A stretch of DNA of 63,977 nt, filler included, from Porpidia crustulata (lineage: Eukaryota), in NCBI GenBank assembly GCA_964255105.1. It is 3 parts of 3 records of this genome, joined end to end, with 100 filler letters (N's around TTAATTAATTAA, not from the genome) between each part and the next. Parts side by side here need not be neighbours in the genome. Positions count along the whole stretch, not along the records: positions 21,825 to 43,523 come from CAXUWE010000100.1; 2 more parts are not named here. One strand, 5' to 3'. The translations under genes were made by a program, and so were the position numbers. Under the pieces are notes generated by a model. It saw only the letters and a program-made list of their open reading frames with translations. It ran no database searches and was not told where the DNA came from. This document shows, piece after piece, positions 7,105-56,280 of the stretch. How positions within the stretch are numbered: position 1 is the first letter of the stretch; the number at the start of each line of letters is the position of its first letter.

Positions 7105-8843
7105 CTATGAATCCCATATAGGACCGTAAGCCGGAATGCCCCGGCTTTCCATGCCGTAGACCACCTTCCGGGTCAAGGAAGGGTTAGAAATGACAAAGAC
7201 GGCCTCGGCCTTAGATTCGAGGTACAGGTGGTATGTGAGGGCGACCATGTCCGGTCGACCAGAGGCCCGTGTGTTGATGATCATGGCTTGCGGGTCGGCC
7301 TTGACCACGGCCTCCATTATGTTTTCTCCGTACGTCTGCAGAGGATTCGGCGTAGACCACAGAATGCGGCTCGGCACCGGATGCGAGACGAGCATGGACA
7401 GACAGGGACCAATACCGGATCCCGTGGTCACGATGACCACCCTTCGGAATACTGCGGCCATACGAAGGACTCCGGTGATGGGGATGCCGCGGATCCAGTA
7501 GCTGTTCGAAGGTTCCTGGATTTGTTTCTTGGTCCAGTCTCCGGCATCAGAGACAATGAGAGAGAAAGAGGAGCCATCAGCTTCGGGAATAGTGGCAAAT
7601 GCATGCCATTCCGTCAAAGGGTTGTGAGTGATTCGGATCCCCACCACCGGCCCTACTCTCATGTATTTAAAATGTATTCGGATGGCGTGGTTGGATAAAA
7701 CTTCCGGAAATGCTTGAACCTTGNNNNNNNNNNGATCACAAGGAACCAGAATGCCGGAGATTTCACCACCAGTATACCCAGGGATTCCGAGCCAGGGGCC
7801 TTGGACTGTGCGTTTGTGACCAGCAGGATTTCGACCCAGAAAAGAGCGACTGCAATCCATCCAGCAAACCGGTGTACAGCCTCGAAAGCGTTGTGGGACA
7901 CGATGCGGAACCGTGGGATGGCAAAGACGCAAATGCACAGGAAGAGCAGGAGCAGTGCATAGGTGACACCAATAACAGCGGGCTCGACAAACACCCCTGA
8001 AACGTAATCTCTGGTGATCAAAACCGTGTATAGCAGGAACCATACCACAGCAGAAATGCCACATCCGCTATGAACCCCTCCGAAATGGTAGAGCTTCGCT
8101 ATCGAGCGCCGTATCCGAAGGGGAACGGACAACGGTGTCCAACAGCAAACTGTGTAGAGAGCGTTGACCACATACTCCTGCCGGATCAATATCGTACCAA
8201 GGACATTGGCCGCCGCAGCGGTAGCGACGTTAGATAGAGGTGGACCGGATGGATTTGTATTTCGATATGCGACCAGAATAATGATGAAGGCAATCATATT
8301 GGCAACGAAAACGATTGAAAATAAGCGCTGATACACGGCGAGAAGTTTATGTCGTATCCTTCTCCATATTCGTCGCTCACGCTTGTAGGGAAGCTTCGGC
8401 ATCTCGTTGGGCGGGATAGACATTCTCCACGTAGAATTGTAGGACGGCGTACTCGTGTGCGGGACTCGCCTCGGGGGCATGGCATCCGATTTTTCAACGT
8501 CATGCGCACCGAGTTCCTGCTGCACCAACACGGGAGCGACGACTCCCTTCTCTAGGTCATCGGATGAATTGCCGGAGCTCTTGCAGGAAAGCATCTCTTC
8601 AGTCGGGTAACCCATTTCTGTAGCTCTCTTCAAGTCGAGTGATTCAGGGCGGAAGTTGCGCTCTTTGGGCGAGTAGTACGGGGTGCTTCCATTCAACCCT
8701 TCGGCTTTTTCTGACTGAACGTCTCTTGCTGATGGTTCCTCCGTTGCGGTAGTTGTCGAGCCGAGAGTGGATGATATGGCACTGACCCTGTTTGCATCGC
8801 CTGGCGGATCTAGCCCACGCTCGCAGTCTCTGACTTCGTCCAT
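7105..8843 (-). CDS. tmpA: TmpA-like integral membrane flavoprotein (multi-TM region plus FAD/NAD(P)-binding domain)
   Basis: Multi-TM region with KLYHFGGVHSG and HNAFEAVHRFAGW. C-terminal EWHAFA, GDWT, VTTGSGIGPCLS and terminal GPIWDS. The two ORF halves are out of frame only across the 10-N gap at 7724-7733. Confidence 0.8.
7724..7733. other. Assembly gap (10 N) inside the TmpA-like CDS
   Basis: Run of N; the reading frame changes across it. Confidence 0.99.
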
Positions 8844-21724: not shown

Positions 21725-21824
21725 NNNNNNNNNNNNNNNNNNNNNNNNNNNNNNNNNNNNNNNNNNNNTTAATTAATTAANNNNNNNNNNNNNNNNNNNN
21801 NNNNNNNNNNNNNNNNNNNNNNNN
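21725..21824. other. Artificial scaffold linker (44 N + TTAATTAATTAA + 44 N)
   Basis: The palindromic 12-mer gives stops in all six frames and is flanked by N runs, 100 bp in total. An identical construct occurs at 43524-43623. Confidence 0.95.
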
Positions 21825-25715: not shown

Positions 25716-26742
25716 TTACGACGCGAAGAATGCATGACTTCTTATGTTACATATGTTAGCAGTTCGAGTCAAAGTACTTGGATTTCGGTAGTCTGTGGTG
25801 TATTCGGATTCCTCAAAGTACGTGATAGTCGTAATGCCAACTTCCTCTGCGAACTTCATGAGCTCGAGGTATTTCGCACCCACCTGATTGACGCCATGAG
25901 AGTCATCCGAGAGCGTAAATCGTCCTCCTTTTGCAAGAAACGCCTTCTCACAACTTCAGCAGATCATTGCATCCGTATAAGTAGGGATTCAACTAACCTT
26001 GCAAATCACTGCTTCGGGATAGGGAGCGTTCAAGCCTTTTCTCAAAGCAGCGGAATTGAGTTCAATAATCCCTCCATACCCGGCGATGTAATCAAGGTTT
26101 CTCAGTATCTTCTCCCAAACATCTTTCCATCGTTTAAGGCTGGCATTTGGTTCACTACTTTTCAGCCTGATCAAATCGAAATGCCCAACCATAGGAGGTT
26201 TCAATGCTTGTAGCATCTTAAAATGGGAATCAAAGTAGTCTTCGGCGAGTTTTTCTTCACTGCCACCCGACATTTCGCAAGCTTTCCCATACGTTTCGTG
26301 ATCAAAGTCAATGGGGACGGCATGGACATGGTGGACCGAGCCGATAAATATGTCGAATCGGTACTTTTGCAGCAGATTTTGAATGAAAGCACTGGAGGAA
26401 GGCCGAATCCAATCTGTTTCCACACCGATGAGGATCTTGATCCGAGAAGAGTACGTTCTCTTCAATCGATTAGCCTCTTGAACATAGTCATCGAACAGCT
26501 TCTCCAATTTAGCTTGCGTACATCCTTCAGCGATCTAGAATTGTCAGTAAGTACAAGGGACGTTCAGCAACGATCCTACAATATACCTCCTCAGGGTAGA
26601 GATCACCGTCCTCTCGAGGCATATGTTCTGTTAGCGCGAAAACTTCCATTTTCCTCTCAATGGCATTCTTGATCACCTCTTCGAGCGTGTTGGTGGCGTG
26701 GCCGCAGAACTGGCCGGAATGACTGTGATGAGAGTATGGCAT
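25716..26742 (-). CDS. HIS2: Histidinol-phosphatase (PHP family)
   Basis: Motifs MPYSHHSHSGQFCGHA, LTEHMPR, IGSVHHV, GHFDLIRL, IELNSAALRKG and TLSDDSHG. Introns 26535-26586 and about 25944-25997. TAA at 25716-25718. Confidence 0.93.
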
Positions 26743-26976
26743 GTTGCAGGTAATGCTTGGGAGAGTCGGTTATAGATTGTCCAGAAAGTAATTAAAAGAC
26801 TCTATATGGGCTTGAAGCTATACAACTTCACCCAATAATAAATACTGGAGGAAATATCTTCAGTGGTCAAAACACGTAGCATAGGGTGAACAAAATTTCA
26901 TCACTGACGTTTAACAATGTCGTGGTGAATATCGCTCGGGAAGTGATGATTACAAGACTGGTCAGCGATGAAAGTT

Positions 26977-26988
26977 AAAAAGCAAAAA
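26977..26988 (-). terminator. Putative RNA Pol III terminator of the tRNA-Arg gene (TTTTTGCTTTTT)
   Basis: Two T5 tracts on the minus strand starting 12 nt downstream of discriminator G73. Confidence 0.7.
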
Positions 26989-26999
26989 CCGTACGATGC

Positions 27000-27123
27000 C
27001 GATGCTCAAGGCTATTCAGAACATTAGAAAGAATGGATGAAAAGTTGATAGGCGAGTACTTACGACTCGAACCCTCAACCTCGTCTTTAGGAGAGACACG
27101 CGCTACCATTGCGCCAAAGCACC
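27000..27123 (-). tRNA. tRNA-Arg(CCU) gene split by a 52-nt GT-AG insert (27012-27063) between tRNA positions 61 and 62
   Basis: Exon 1 is 27123-27064: GGTGCTT TG GCGC AATGGTA GCGC G TGTCT CT CCT AA AGACG AGGTT GAGGG TTCGAGT C. Exon 2 is 27011-27000: CCTT GAGCATC G. The joined sequence folds into full acceptor, D, anticodon and T stems. Confidence 0.9.
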
Positions 27124-27584
27124 AAATGCATTACCTAAGTTGTCCTTACTTAGTATCTATTAAAAAAGTATTCATCTGAGCCTCCTCTGCTTGTCTTTGA
27201 CACTCTTTCCCTTCTAGTGCCTCCTTCCTGCAATGCGGCCGGAGCCTTACTACAGGCAACTGTGACCTTGAAATTGAGGGGAGTTCCATATTGGCTAGAC
27301 TTTTCTTTTTTGAGATGACATGAATACTTGTATAAATCCCTCTCGTGTTCTGCTACTACGTCCTCCTATTGTGCTATGAATTACTAGTGCCTCTATCTCT
27401 CCTGCCTTGTCCCTGCCTAGCGATGTCCAGTCTTGATTAGAATTAAGGTTGATGGTGGGTAGGCTCTATATAGCTGAAAGGGTAAAAGCCGATTCCAGCT
27501 ATTGTAGGTCTACTTGTAGGATACGCTGTGGCTCTCAATGCTATGATAGATTTGAAAAAGGACGCGCAGTTAGAAGTACTCAGA

Positions 27585-28576
27585 CTAGATGCCTAAAGTA
27601 TCCACCATTTGGCCGAGCGGGCTTTCTAAATGTTGGCCGTTTCGGTCCAAACCAAGTCTCCATATCCGACATGGTTCATGAAGCCATCCTTTGTCGCCCC
27701 AATCTGGCTCATGTATAGGAAATCCGGATCCGTCGTCGATGATATAATCCATTTCTGCGGGACGATTGACTTTCTCGCTCAATGCCATACATACCGCAAC
27801 TACGTAGGGCCCGTCATGGCTGATACTCAACTCGGCAACTTGCCTGTCATTTTCCTGGACGAGTCGCTTTCTCAAAAAGAATGTCTCCGCGTTCGGACCT
27901 TGGCCTGGTACGAATTTACCGCTGATGATTTCTCCGGAAATTGTTTCGATTCGTCCCAATACCTTATCATTCACTAGTCGATCTCGTATAAATCCTCCTA
28001 ATCCACGTATTCTGGCTACAGCGGTACCCATTATGACGTATTGAGGAAGCGGTTCAATGAGGAGAATTGGTTTCTGACCTATACCAGTATCCTCCTTCGA
28101 TGCGACGTTCCGCGCCCGCACATTGGGAAGAATAGATACATCCCTGTAGTAGAGCTTGCGATGGCGGTGTGCTTTTATTGCAGCTTCTTTCGCGGCCCAT
28201 CTGAAGTCCACGTGTCAGCATACTCGAGGAATTCAAAGTATAGAAATTCAATGCCAGTTCCTAACCTTCCTGCCAAAAATTGTGCTAAACCATGAATCGA
28301 AGGTGCAATGGAATCCAAATCTCGCCCCCCGTCCACGTTGAGTGCCACTTTGTGTGAAGCTGTGGGCAAGAAAAGCCTGGCCTCTGACGATTTACTTGAT
28401 AGAGGGCTGTAAGCATGGTTGACTCGTTTGTAGACCCAAGGCCATTCCAATCGCGTGAAAACTCTCTTCGCCCATCTATTCAGACGAGCGTCGTTCTCCA
28501 AAATATCTAACATACGATCTGTTCGACAAGCATCTACGCCAACGCCCAAAGGAAAGGGAAATGGTCTGGGTGGCAT
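27585..28576 (-). CDS. AcpS-type 4'-phosphopantetheinyl transferase (holo-ACP synthase-like)
   Basis: Motifs PFPLGVGVDAC, FLAGR|WAAKEAAIKA (across intron 28201-28265) and LSISHDGPYVVAVC. Confidence 0.82.
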
Positions 28577-29406
28577 TTCTTTCCGTTTCGGTAAGCTCAA
28601 GTAGTCAGCGACAGGCCAGCAGTGAATTTCAGTGGGGCTTTTGACGACAAATATAATATGGCACAAGCCTGATCTAGGAGGTGATGCGATAAATATAAGC
28701 TAGAATACTGTGGGTGCTGTCGCAAATGAGCTCACTCTCTCCGTCTTGAAACTTTGTCCGGCTACCTGCCACTTCTAAAGATCTAGAGGAATTTGTCAGG
28801 GGACGCACGTCAACATGAAAATTATATGAAGAGAGGTTACCATCCTCGCAAAGGAAATTTGATAGCATTAGTCTCTGGCTAGACGCGTCTCCAAAGCAGA
28901 CCGCCTATATAAATGTACAAAGCATTCACAGAAGATTTTGAGCGCGGCTCGTCGTCGCACACCAGTGTCACGGGACGCCTTGTCAGAACATGAAAGATAG
29001 ACAATAATAATGAACGTGAGAGTTACTTGAACTTAAGATCAAAATGGTTCGAATTGACGATTATGAATTGAAATCTCATGTACCTACCTTGGATATCATT
29101 TCCGCTAACGCAACATCAGCGCGTAAGGTCCACATCTAGTCACGACATTGTAGATAGAGCATCAAAGTTTATCTACTTCAAATTTCATTGAGTAATTGAC
29201 TATTTGCATAGCATTGTATTTCTTCGGCGTCATCGGCGTTTTCACAGGACATATCATGCGATAGCGAGCACTAATTATCATACTAATTTACAAATAAAGG
29301 CAAGAACCATTCCTTTTTGTCCTTATGCATTCGAGTCCAGAGTTCAACCACGTAGGATTACAGCCATGCTGAGTCCAACGTCCTCCCAACTTGTTCCGAT
29401 CCGGGT

Positions 29407-38216: not shown

Positions 38217-39318
38217 ATGGCGTCGCTTGACGTACACGCAGATACTGCCAATAATGAGCCCTCTGCTATCAACAGTATTTTATCTAAAGGGCAGAACATA
38301 GAAACTTCCCACGAAGAACACCAATATCTCAAACTCATAGAGGAGATTCTACAGCACGGCGAGTTTCGCCCGGATAGGTACTTTGTTATCAGCAATCCAA
38401 ACCCTGCCTACATGCTAATTTGAGGTATACAGAACAGGGACAGGAACTCGCTCCATCTTTGCACCTCATCCTCTCCGATTTTCGCTTTCGCGGCCTTCGA
38501 ATGACTCTTCACAACCCCCCACTCCAATCCTGCCACTACTGACGACTAAACGTGTTTTTCTTCGCGCTGTAGTCGCTGAGCTTCTCTGGTTCATTTCTGG
38601 CAGTACATCTTCCATACCTCTCTCAGAGGCCGGGATAAAAATATGGGATGGCAATGGCAGCCGCGAATATCTCGATAGTGTTGGTCTCACACACCGGGCG
38701 GTTGGAGACCTTGGGCCTGTGTATGGTTTTCAATGGAGGCACTTTGGGGCCGAATATATTGACGCAGAAACGGACTACACCGGCAAAGGAGTAGATCAAC
38801 TGGCGGAGATTGTTGATAAACTTAAGAATAAACCTTATGACAGGCGAATCATACTGAGTGCATGGAACCCGGCCGACCTGGTGAAGATGGCTCTGCCGCC
38901 CTGCCACATGTTTGCTCAATTTTATGTTTCGTTCCCGCGATCCAACAGTTCGTCGGATTCTAGCGCTATCCAATCGCCAGTCCCTCGTGGCGTTCTCTCC
39001 TGCCAGCTCTATCAACGCTCGTGTGACATGGGTCTAGGTGTCCCATTCAACATTGCGTCTTATGCTCTTCTTACGCACATGCTAGCTCACGTATGTGACT
39101 TGACCCCAGGGGCATTTACACAAACCATGGGAGATGCACACGTATACCTGGATCACGTTGACGCGTTGAATGTACAACTGGAAAGGGATCCGAGGGCATT
39201 CCCTGAACTGGCAATCAAGAGAAAACCAGGAGGAGAAATCGACGGGTGGAAAGCCGAAGACTTCGAGATACATGGTTATAAGCCACATCCGGGCATTCCT
39301 ATGAAGATGAGCGTATGA
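38217..39318 (+). CDS. CDC21: Thymidylate synthase
   Basis: Motifs HEEHQYL, DRTGTGT (across intron about 38378-38432), [29 protein letters not shown] and [18 protein letters not shown]. Confidence 0.97.
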
Positions 39319-40221: not shown

Positions 40222-41762
40222 ATGTCCGGTGCCGGATCTGGCTCTTCATCCTCGAAGGGAAGACCTTTGACCAAAGCTTTCTCGAAGATTGATCTTGATG
40301 GCCACGATCTGCCTCCCTCGCCCGCACCTTCAAGCCCTCGGAATGGCATAAAGTACGCCTTTGCTACAGAGTTAGTATATACCGAGGGGAACGATCAATA
40401 CAATGCGAGCAGCACGCCCATATATCAGGTATGGTGCTTGTAATTACAACTGATATCGAAATTGCTTCCACGACTTAGAAAATCTTCAAAACCGGCTTTC
40501 AATCTTAATAACCGTTGGCTGACCTCTTTCTATCAATAGTCTGCTACTTTTAAACAGGCGCCTGGAGGGGGCCCTGGCGAATACGACTACACAAGGTCCG
40601 GCAATCCCACGAGGACACATCTCGAAAGACATCTCGCCAAAATCATGAGTGCTGAACGCGCCCTAGTCGTTTCCTCTGGGATGGGTGCTCTAGACGTAAT
40701 CACGCGACTCCTACGGCCTGATGATGAGGTTGTGACAGGGGACGACCTCTATGGGGGAACCAACCGACTGCTGAAGTATCTCGCCACCAATAACGGGATT
40801 ATCGTTCATCATGTTGATACAACGACCCTTGAGAAAGTACGGCAGGTCCTTGGGCCGAAGACTGCCATGGTACTCCTAGAAAGTCCAACAAACCCTTTAA
40901 TCAAGATTTGCGATATTCCCACAATCTCCAAGCTTGCGCACGAGGCGAACCCCAGCGCGCTGGTGGCTGTGGACAACACTATGCTTTCACCTCTTCTACA
41001 AAACCCTCTGGACCTAGGTGCAGACATAGTTTATGAGAGTGGCACGAAATATTTGTCTGGTCATCATGATCTCATGGCCGGTGTAATAGCCTTCAACGAT
41101 AGCGCCCTTGGGGAGAAGCTCTTCTTCACCATCAATGCCTCTGGCTGTGGTCTTGCACCCTTTGACTCATGGCTACTCATGCGAGGCATCAAGACGCTCA
41201 AAGTTCGCCTTGAGCAACAACAATCAAATGCCCAAAGAATAGCGGAATTCCTCGAAGCTCATGGTTTCAGGGTTCGATATCCTGGCCTCAAATCACACCC
41301 GCAATATGCACTTCACAATTCCATGGCGCGCGGCGCTGGTGCTGTACTATCCTTTGAAACCGGTGATACTATCGTCAGTGAGAGAATCGTAGAGGCGGCA
41401 CGACTGTGGGCGATTAGTGTCAGCTTTGGCTGCGTCAATAGCCTGATCAGCATGCCTTGTCGGATGAGCCATGCCAGCATTGATGCGAAGACTAGACAGG
41501 AACGAGCGATGCCTGAGGATATCATCAGGTTATGTGTCGGCATTGAAGATGCTGATGACTTGATTGACGACCTAAGCAGAGCAGTAAGTACCTCTCCGCC
41601 CTATCGCTGTACTTGGCTAATGGTATATCAAAGCTTGTTCAAGCTGGAGCAGTGAAGCTGACACCCGATGGCGGATTTCATGCCAATGGTATCCCAGAGG
41701 TAGTGGGCGAAGAACCGCCATCCACAAACATATCATTCCTTCGCGAGGACCCAGCTTTATAG
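40222..41762 (+). CDS. STR3: Cystathionine beta-lyase
   Basis: Motifs TPIYQ|SATFKQ, YDYTRSGNPTR, LESPTNP, VDNTM, the PLP lysine motif ESGTKYLSGHHD and IIRLCVGIED. Introns about 40429-40539 and 41584-41633. Confidence 0.93.
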
Positions 41763-43523: not shown

Positions 43524-43623
43524 NNNNNNNNNNNNNNNNNNNNNNNNNNNNNNNNNNNNNNNNNNNNTTAATTAATTAANNNNNNNNNNNNNNNNNNNNN
43601 NNNNNNNNNNNNNNNNNNNNNNN
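43524..43623. other. Artificial scaffold linker (44 N + TTAATTAATTAA + 44 N)
   Basis: Same construct as at 21725-21824. Confidence 0.95.
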
Positions 43624-53651: not shown

Positions 53652-56280
53652 TCATTCGGTCCGGAGCACCCTCGCCCCTCGTCGTTTTGCCGTCTTCTTC
53701 TTCTTGTTCCCTTTATCAAATGCCACCGCGCTGGCGTGATCTCTGCCAACGTTATCAAGGTCCTTGACTTTGTAGATTCTAATGATCCAGTTCTCGCTTG
53801 TGAACGCTTCTTCGAGCGTGTTCAGTTGCGGCCCTTCCGCCGGCATCTTAGATCCTCGAACTCGATCTTGAGCTTGCCCCGCGGGAAAGAGCGAGTTGTA
53901 GTTGTAGTAAGACATTTTATACCTGAAATAGTTAGCAGGTTCGTTGCGGTTCACTGTTGAAGACCCAGGCTTACATCAGGCTATTTCTCATGGTTGGTGT
54001 GGCCTCATCATCGACCCTGTACTCTCCTCTGGCGGTGAAGAAGTCTCGTTCTTTGACTTCGTCAGGCCAGATACCTTCGGCAATCCGGACCATCCAAAGG
54101 AATTTGTTGATATCGTCGCCCGAGTAACCCAACAAGCCGCCAAACACGACCAGCACGTAGTCAACGTCATGCTGCCTCAGAATAGGATAGCTTACTTCCT
54201 CTTGAGAGCTCATAGCCTTTCCGACAGTGGCTATATGCGTGTTGTTCCAAGTATTATTATCCACGAGGGTAGGCCTATCAGCCATGCCTCCGATCTGATA
54301 ACCATAGTCCCACCAGGACATGATCTTGGCGTTGTCGGCGGTGTTTTGCCGGAGCCAATAATATGCTTCACGATAGTCATCAATAATATGTTGACTGCCA
54401 TCAGGCATCTTGCTGGCCAGTACTACCGACGGCGACGAGTATGCGTTCGAAGTCACCCAAGTGCAATGAAGCACAAATAGAAGCAGGTACGTCGTGATAG
54501 CCGAGACCATGGAGATTTTGGAGACGTAAGAATATATGCCCAGAATCGGCTTCCGAGTAGATCTCAGCGAATCTAGCACGGCTGAAGTCGCGCTCTTGGC
54601 ATTGTCGCCAGTTGCATGCCCATTCGACTGGGCTTCCGTTGGTGGGGAGTCTGCGACGAGATAGGTGTCCAAGATGCTGGAAAGAGCCAAGGCTGCAGCA
54701 ATACATACAACAGGTGTGAGGGTCAGCATCAGCCTGACCATCACGCCTGCAAAGTAACTTGCTAAGACGGCGTAAATTACCACAAAAACTTGCTCGTCTG
54801 TCAGTCTCTGGAAGCACATGTAGACCCCAGCGGGGAAAAGCCATATCAAAAGGTTCAAATCGAAGAAGAAAGCTGGCCACGCTGTTGGCTGATGTTCCGA
54901 TACCGATGCGATGATGGGGATATGAATCTTTGCGTAGCCCGTGTCCCAGAGTGAGTAGAAGCGACCGCTCCAAGGGGCGATGACTCCTGATACAGTCAAG
55001 AGGACCAGAAGGCCAAACGAAACAGCAAATACAACCAGAATTAGGCTGCGGAGTAGTGTTTGGAATTGCTTATTCGGTACTTGTTGGCGGATGAATTCAA
55101 CGAATGCCACAAGTTGAAGGAGGCCGAATACACCTAATATCGTTAGTCTTATCCTAACATTAGATAGATCGCTCCGTACCTAGAGCCGACATGTGTTCGC
55201 TACTTCTGATCGGGAGAAATCCGACAAACGGTACCTGCATACTAGCCAATGTACCGAGGGCGAACCAAGTGCTATAGCTGACATACAGTCTAGGACTATA
55301 TCTGCCCATGCAAATCAAGACAAACGCATGGAGTGGCAGCAGGTTCGTGATGAAGACATAGCCTCCCCACGCGGACACCATGTAGCCATAGAACAACGCG
55401 GTCCACGCACCCCACATAGCAGACCCGTTTTTGATAGCCTTAATCCATAGATAAAACGTGAAGACAAGAAGGAATATAGCAATGGCCTCATTGTCATAGC
55501 TTCCAGCCACAGATCTTGATATATAGCCGGGCGTGATCCCCATGAATGCAGCTGCCAGAAGACCAGCGGACGGTGACGTTGTCATCTCCGATGTGATGAG
55601 GTATGAGGCTAAAGCTGTAAGGCCAGAGCATGCTGGCGCAAGAAGAACGCATATGTTCCGGATATCAATAGGTAGCGACAGAAGGCGAAGGATATGGTAA
55701 ATGACACCGCTAGTCACCATCAGACCAGGGTAGAGCGTCCCACCAGTTACACGACCTAGCGGATGCCATGTTCCTGTGAAAATAATGTTGTAAGCTCGAG
55801 CAAGTCCTCAATTGCAGGGTAGTATAGCCATATTCTGCCATTTCTTGTGCCGGGTGGATATGTAGAAAGGCTTACGGTCATCGAACCAGTCCCAGAAGCT
55901 GTAGAACCCGTTCTGTACAAGATATTTTGTGGCTCTAAAGTTGAACCAAGGATCGACTGGAACGCTGGTCAGCGTTGAAAATCAATTGCCTTGTAGCAAG
56001 ACTGCTACAGGTCATTCGCGACTTCGGGCTCGCTTGGAGGGAGACAAACACTCGTGTATGATGCTCTCGAAACCTAGAACCCATTAGTCTTCTGCATGTG
56101 TCACAGATATTGAAGCCTCTTGCAATCAAGAGAATTCAGGGTGTGCGTACGAATGACACTGAAAAGCCGACTGGCAACTGCGGCCGCAGCAATGGTTAAG
56201 AGAATGACCAGTCGGAGTAGCCCTCGTGTGTTTCTACCTGTATCACCCTTTAAGAAGGGCTCCACAGAAGTTGGCGGCAT
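53652..56280 (-). CDS. STT3: Oligosaccharyltransferase catalytic subunit STT3
   Basis: Motifs [46 protein letters not shown] and DDINKFLWM. Six exons including a 24-nt mini-exon at about 56050-56073. Confidence 0.97.

Follow-up and report, generated by a model that had tools for sequence, protein, structure and literature searches.

The question raised by this locus is whether a tRNA can owe its completion to the spliceosome: in the window, i.e. the whole stretch of 63,977 bases that has been analysed, a tRNA-Arg(CCU) gene is split in its T-arm by a 52-nt insert that carries the signals of an mRNA-type intron. In the textbook division, spliceosomal introns reside in Pol II transcripts and in a few snRNA and rRNA genes, while tRNA introns are located at position 37/38 and are cut by TSEN. 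The same division is drawn in the introduction of a 2025 paper (PMC12530127), where the eukaryotic intron types are treated as unrelated classes, with separate hosts for spliceosomal and for tRNA introns. The reading that we favour, to which we give a probability of roughly one half, is that of a nuclear tRNA-Arg(CCU) gene that has gained a U2-type intron between tRNA positions 61 and 62, and whose transcript would be spliced to a working tRNA; the main rival of this reading is an allele that the insert has inactivated.

The gene extends over positions 27123-27000 of the minus strand. Exon 1 (27064..27123, minus strand, 60 nt), identified by ARAGORN, by folding and by direct reading, represents tRNA positions 1-61: it holds the 5' strand of the acceptor stem, the D-arm, the anticodon arm, a 5-nt variable loop, the 5' strand of the T-stem, the T-loop and C61. 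The anticodon loop, CTCCTAA, with the arginine anticodon CCT, is uninterrupted, and position 37/38 is free of any insert; the break occurs between tRNA positions 61 and 62. Exon 2 (27000..27011, minus strand, 12 nt), placed by ARAGORN, by the fold and by coordinate comparison with homologues, supplies the last four bases of the 3' strand of the T-stem, the seven bases of the 3' strand of the acceptor stem and the discriminator G. The elements that an earlier note on this DNA had described, including the intron signals and the T5 tracts that are treated below, are all located where it had placed them.

Two elements of exon 1, both found by direct reading, resemble the internal promoter of a Pol III gene: an A-box-like element at tRNA positions 8-18 (27106..27116, minus strand), and a B-box-like element, GGTTCGAGTC, at tRNA positions 52-61 (27064..27073, minus strand); both labels presume the general A-box and B-box consensus. 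The B-box-like element is intact, because the insert begins directly after C61; the same stretch is identical in 10/10 intronless homologues, as it was part of the pattern with which these were searched. Two T5 runs (26988-26984 and 26981-26977, together 26977..26988, minus strand) are located 12 and 19 nt after the discriminator, where a Pol III terminator is expected, and the tRNA-type internal promoter boxes together with the T5 terminators point to Pol III as the likely polymerase of this locus. The codon AGG is in use, since it accounts for 28 of the 243 arginine codons in six long open frames of the window.

As it stands, the split gene is either overlooked or misread by tRNA finders, which the earlier note had foreseen. 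ARAGORN reports 0 tRNAs in the 63,977-base window, and no tRNA in the unspliced locus either with or without its option for anticodon-loop introns. The Rfam model RF00005 matches the unspliced DNA at 27054-27123 (minus strand) with 37.2 bits (gathering cut-off 29); the match covers exon 1 and describes a spurious tRNA of 70 nt, in which the 3' end is wrong and three pairs of the T-stem are broken. This false call occurs because bases 3-9 of the intron (AAGTACT, 27055..27061, minus strand), which can pair 7/7 with the 5' strand of the acceptor stem (two of the pairs being G-U), stand in as its 3' partner. By our own estimate, a random 7-mer would pair in this manner in about 0.4% of cases per register; the pairing could be due to chance, could rival the true acceptor stem, or could mask the 5' splice site. 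tRNAscan-SE 2.0 seeks non-canonical introns in archaeal mode only, by means of BHB models (PMC8450103); in eukaryotes, a gene of this kind would go undetected.

The outcome is different once positions 27063-27012 are cut out by coordinates: ARAGORN then calls tRNA-Arg(cct), as had been predicted for the spliced sequence. The minimum-energy fold of the joined 72-mer is a cloverleaf (-22.6 kcal/mol) with 21/21 standard pairs and with all the invariant loop bases present, and it is only after the excision that a cloverleaf is obtained. Since the bases beside each of the exon-insert junctions differ, the boundaries cannot slide, and the sole excision that restores the tRNA is the exact GT...AG one, which bears out the claim that precisely this removal completes the molecule.

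The insert itself (27012..27063, minus strand), delimited by direct reading, by ARAGORN after its removal and by a scan of segments, is of the spliceosomal type. Its donor, GTAAGT, is located at 27063-27058 and its terminal TAG at 27014-27012; the branch motif CTAAT is located at 27027-27023, its branch A being 12 nt before the last G, and the stretch that separates the two is free of AG. The exon bases that directly precede the donor, GTC, deviate from the consensus. The scan was based on a strict rule, by which a segment has to start with GTAAGT, carry a CTRAY branch 6-30 nt from its end with no intervening AG, and end in YAG: among all 52-nt segments of both strands of the window, 1 in 127,126 passes, and among window segments of 40-90 nt, 1 in 6,516,474, the one that passes being the tRNA insert in both cases. 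With the donor relaxed to GTRNGT, nine window segments of 40-90 nt pass. A chance origin of intron signals that fit the tRNA this exactly is excluded, and the insert is, to judge by its sequence, very probably a bona fide U2-type spliceosomal intron.

The closest standard of comparison is found in the adjacent gene, a HIS2-type histidinol phosphatase gene with a PHP domain (25716..26742, minus strand), identified with the PHP profile and by reading by eye, which shares its strand with the tRNA and whose ATG (at 26742) comes about 258 nt downstream of the latter. Intron 1 of this gene (26535..26586, minus strand) has a GTATAT donor, an ACTGAC branch and a CTAG end, and its length is 52 nt, the same as that of the insert. 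This intron was read by eye and then checked against an uninterrupted homologue from a metagenome contig (locus L007, described below) and against the PHP profile: it falls at profile position 43, the domain being split over two frames and the profile resuming from 43 to 43. The remark that the insert has the size of neighbouring mRNA introns is thereby supported by an intron that has been verified by homology. Elsewhere in the window, a crude ORF-joining heuristic, which yields candidates only, gives introns of 48-67 nt, whose donors are GTAAGT, GTGAGT or GTATGT and whose branches are CTAAT, CTGAC or CTGAT; given the likeness of the HIS2 intron and of these candidates, the insert is typical of the introns of this genome.

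The wider surroundings consist of genes of ordinary appearance, and the gene content of the window looks fungal. On the other side of the tRNA from HIS2, open frames on the same strand (27585..28699, minus strand), with a stop 462 nt before the tRNA, possibly encode a 4'-phosphopantetheinyl transferase, although their match to ACPS, with E 0.05 and 14.1 bits, stays below the cut-off of 25 bits; the tRNA is thus located between two same-strand genes. Housekeeping genes with short candidate introns are also seen in the window at 38419-39318, 40540-41655 and 53971-55179 (thymidylate synthase, a PLP enzyme of Cys/Met metabolism and STT3), and a candidate intron at 41584-41633 is 50 nt long, with a GTAAGT donor and a CTAAT branch.

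Within the 64 kb of the window the insert is unique: its best other match is 10 nt long, and a 29-nt probe taken from it, with up to 3 mismatches allowed, has 1 match, namely itself; neither a target-site duplication nor a terminal inverted repeat has been seen at the insert on direct reading. The marks of introner-like or transposon-derived introns, which are numerous near-identical copies and duplicated target sites or terminal repeats, are thus not seen within this window. In the predicted fold of the precursor, the acceptor and anticodon stems are kept and the 5' splice site is held in a small CGAGT/ACTCG hairpin, with a stability that is not above that of shuffled sequences (z = -0.83). 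The two arms of this hairpin, CGAGT in the T-loop and ACTCG in the intron (27053-27069, minus strand), form a 5-bp inverted repeat, with most of GTAAGT in the 7-nt loop.

An insert in a tRNA may also be sought among the substrates of the tRNA splicing endonuclease: it could be a non-canonical TSEN intron recognised through a BHB-like fold, as in Cyanidioschyzon and nucleomorph tRNAs, in which case its GT-AG ends would be coincidental. A relaxed helix-bulge-helix can indeed be drawn, with GUUCG of the T-loop and UGAAU of the intron beside the four natural T-stem pairs, and in a search with relaxed rules a fully paired central helix occurs in 6 of 432 arrangements, the forms with cleavage at the bulge edge occurring in 6 and in 27 of 432. 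A canonical BHB at the junctions, i.e. one with 3-nt bulges, a 4-bp helix and, as is the rule for this motif, a cut after the second bulge base, occurs in 0 arrangements; moreover, the best relaxed fold would be cut about three bases upstream of C61, which would leave the tRNA unrestored. These two results make the endonuclease an unlikely agent, and on this reading donor, branch and acceptor would all have come together by chance, at odds of about 1 in 10^6. With no canonical BHB and a position other than 37/38, we have rejected an intron of the BHB/TSEN type and consider it highly improbable.

An error of assembly or of sequencing is a further way in which a tRNA could appear split. The locus is contained in one public run, with a word depth of about 11, and the run is possibly the assembly's own source; this run is not recorded as RNA, and a search of public runs returned no RNA run with the locus. 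In the Logan contigs of this run, which come from a second assembler, positions 26800-27350 are found with 0 differences within a contig of 20,826 nt; since the assembly may itself derive from this run, the agreement excludes a misassembly by the assembler, which had been named as a point to be checked, but not an error at the level of the reads. An artefact would not, at the same time, produce a flawless intron precisely where the two halves of a tRNA meet, and we find such an origin scarcely credible. When the contigs of the run were aligned to 26800-27350 at 80% likeness, 1 of 430,130 was placed, and it is near-identical; no contig of a second copy that lacks the intron was placed, a count that does not establish a single copy. 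The runs of N in the window, which are two pairs of 44-base runs with 12 bases between them (21725-21824 and 43524-43623) and a 10-base run (7724-7733), are masked stretches or gaps and are unrelated to the tRNA.

The history of the insert can be read from related loci. A scan of metagenome contigs with a pattern that extends from the anticodon loop to the T-loop of the tRNA has returned 10 loci, and the tRNA-Arg(CCT) is uninterrupted in 10/10 of them; five (L001, L002, L005, L007 and L008) are eukaryote-like and agree with the tRNA as spliced in silico at 62-63 of 72 bases. One of them, L007, is syntenic with the window: a tRNA-Arg(cct) without the insert (257-329) precedes a HIS2 homologue that shares its strand, shows up to 59.6% identity to the HIS2 of the window over 136 aa in tblastx and contains a PHP domain (E 5e-24). 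The orthologous locus beside HIS2 that had been proposed as a check on the gain of an intron has hence been found, and it lacks the insert. As L007 shares the order of tRNA and HIS2, the pair is old; as all of the other homologues are likewise without the insert, the insert is a lineage-specific intron gain. The remaining four eukaryote-like loci have the tRNA alone in common with the window, with no synteny. Three of these (L002 1471-1542, L005 998-1069 and L008 1489-1560) are the same intronless tRNA-Arg(CCT) locus over the approximately 200 bases compared, i.e. the tRNA with about 15 bases upstream and about 130 downstream, and look like one widespread eukaryote. HIS2 intron 1 is also missing from the L007 orthologue (at about 840-850), where the frame runs through; at this locus, consequently, two or more introns of the window's lineage are lacking in L007.

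The comparison with L007 also shows how the tRNA has changed. MAFFT, as Infernal had done, put the first bases of the intron against the 3' ends of the homologues and opened no 52-nt gap, for which reason the tRNAs of the window and of the homologues have been compared by coordinates. Between the window and L007, 63 of 72 bases are identical, and 9/9 differences are located in stem pairs, with no unpaired position changed: four pairs are changed on both sides and one on one side, none is broken, and three of the four compensated pairs join exon 1 to exon 2. Such stem-preserving changes are the signature of a tRNA under selection, and they cannot be dated relative to the insertion.

This last point leads to the main rival, i.e. 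a recently inactivated allele, in which a real intron has been inserted by reverse splicing or transposition, the Pol III transcript stays unspliced or is ended at a T4 run, AGG is read by tRNA-Arg(UCU) or by another copy, and the event is too young for decay to be visible. We regard this as quite possible, if short of probable. The insert could be young, as it is missing from L007 and in 10/10 homologous loci. It also contains a T4 run (27043-27040), with no longer T run in the intron, which could stop Pol III ahead of exon 2; the T run that comes first after the tRNA is likewise only T4 in L007 and L002, so that T4 may matter in such fungi. Transcripts of Pol III are, in general, poor substrates for splicing, and S. 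cerevisiae can do without its single tRNA-Arg(CCU) gene, so that a dead copy could persist. Set against these points, the tRNA (21/21 pairs, invariant loop bases), the splice signals and the terminator show no decay, and the core of the B-box has been spared; furthermore, the U6 gene of S. pombe shows the splicing of Pol III transcripts to be possible (PMC5855946). It also counts against a working gene that the insert is seen in one genome only, so that, with the L007 orthologue being without it, no conservation of the splice signals is seen; the same holds for the non-consensus exon bases before the donor and for the predicted precursor fold, with its hairpin at the 5' splice site and its ordinary stability.

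It is also conceivable that the locus has been kept for something other than a tRNA, either as a TFIIIC/Pol III boundary element that separates its two neighbouring genes or as part of a spliced Pol II transcript, such as a long leader of HIS2. The intact A and B boxes, the position of the locus, which precedes the same-strand HIS2 ATG by 258 nt, and the tRNA-HIS2 linkage that is kept in L007 would all agree with such a role; a boundary element, however, would keep neither exon 2 nor the pairs that it forms with exon 1, and two T5 runs stand between the tRNA and HIS2. We consider a role of this kind improbable.

Returning to the favoured reading of a tRNA that is matured by splicing, we infer the transcription, splicing and function of the split gene in the following manner. 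The internal A and B boxes are untouched, no T run in the intron is longer than T4, and T5 runs stand in the place of the terminator; Pol III should therefore yield a precursor, which would be about 140 nt long. In this precursor, the acceptor, D and anticodon stems would be able to form, and the T-arm would not. The spliceosome would read GUAAGU, the CUAAU branch and the first AG downstream, and would join C61 to C62; only then could the T-arm form, after which RNase P, RNase Z and CCA addition would complete the tRNA. That the gene produces a Pol III-type tRNA-Arg(CCU) precursor that becomes functional only when the spliceosome has excised the insert from the 3' strand of the T-stem is a proposal that we hold tentatively, at somewhat less than even odds. 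The intron most likely entered the tRNA transcript, or the transcribed DNA, in the sense orientation, either by reverse splicing or by intron transposition; this orientation fits reverse splicing whose target is RNA or the DNA strand that an R-loop displaces (PMC11146597).

Several consequences would follow if this reading is correct. The locus would be the first tRNA gene with a spliceosomal intron, crossing the divide between the intron types; it would give direct evidence that spliceosomal introns can colonise abundant, structured RNAs outside splicing, and would extend the precedent of U6, for the splicing of Pol III transcripts, to an RNA that is not spliceosomal. Because an orthologous locus without the insert exists, the gain would be a clean and datable one, and it would bear on the models of reverse splicing and of R-loop intron transposition (PMC11146597). 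It would also imply that tRNA finders in their eukaryotic mode can overlook functional genes. Even if the gene is dead, the locus is a rare snapshot of an intron that has landed in a non-coding RNA gene. The earlier note knew of no described spliceosomal intron in a tRNA, and a full-text search, with most subscription journals outside it, has likewise found no published description of one in a tRNA gene.

Among the known systems with which the locus can be compared, the group II introns of plastid tRNA genes are organellar, are self-splicing or dependent on a maturase, and range in length from hundreds to thousands of nt. They share with the process proposed here a lariat-type removal from a tRNA precursor, group II splicing being a cousin of spliceosomal splicing; they differ from the insert in that the latter is nuclear and has a length of only 52 nt. 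The ectopic and multiple tRNA introns of Cyanidioschyzon merolae and the non-canonical tRNA introns of archaea are defined by the BHB and are cut by the tRNA splicing endonuclease (PMC3728597, PMC3978253, PMC8450103). In these cases too, the tRNA is broken outside position 37/38 and is missed by finders in eukaryotic mode; unlike them, the insert of the window has no canonical BHB, and its ends are GTAAGT...TAG.

Closer parallels are provided by mRNA-type introns in other non-coding RNAs. In Rhodotorula hasegawae, the genes for the snRNAs U1, U2 and U5 contain spliceosomal introns, as do ascomycete rRNA genes (Takahashi 1993, 1996; Bhattacharya 2000, via PMC5855946), and the abundance and the structure of the RNA are named as possible determinants of insertion (PMC5855946). 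The resemblance lies in a spliceosomal intron within a non-coding RNA, including RNAs, such as U1 and rRNA, that are located away from the catalytic centre; the difference is that the host RNAs of Rhodotorula and of the ascomycetes are products of Pol II or Pol I. The host classes listed in PMC5855946 are U6, U1, U2, U5 and rRNA, and tRNA is absent from them.

The nearest counterpart is the U6 gene of S. pombe, a Pol III gene with an mRNA-type intron that the spliceosome excises, as also occurs in other fungi (Tani and Ohshima 1989, 1991; Canzler 2016, via PMC5855946). U6 is located in the spliceosome's catalytic core and, for this reason, meets excised introns, whereas a tRNA is not located there; in addition, the splicing of U6 has been demonstrated, whereas that of the tRNA insert is proposed from its sequence. 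For the U6 introns, PMC5855946 gives as the proposed origin an insertion by reverse splicing, followed by reverse transcription and recombination, which parallels the arrival that we suggest for the insert. In both cases, the intron is short and lineage-specific, its two splice sites and its branch are canonical, and it is located in a small, structured non-coding RNA gene of the Pol III type; the canonical signals and the exact, restoring excision that characterise mRNA-type introns in non-coding RNAs are also those found in the insert of this tRNA.
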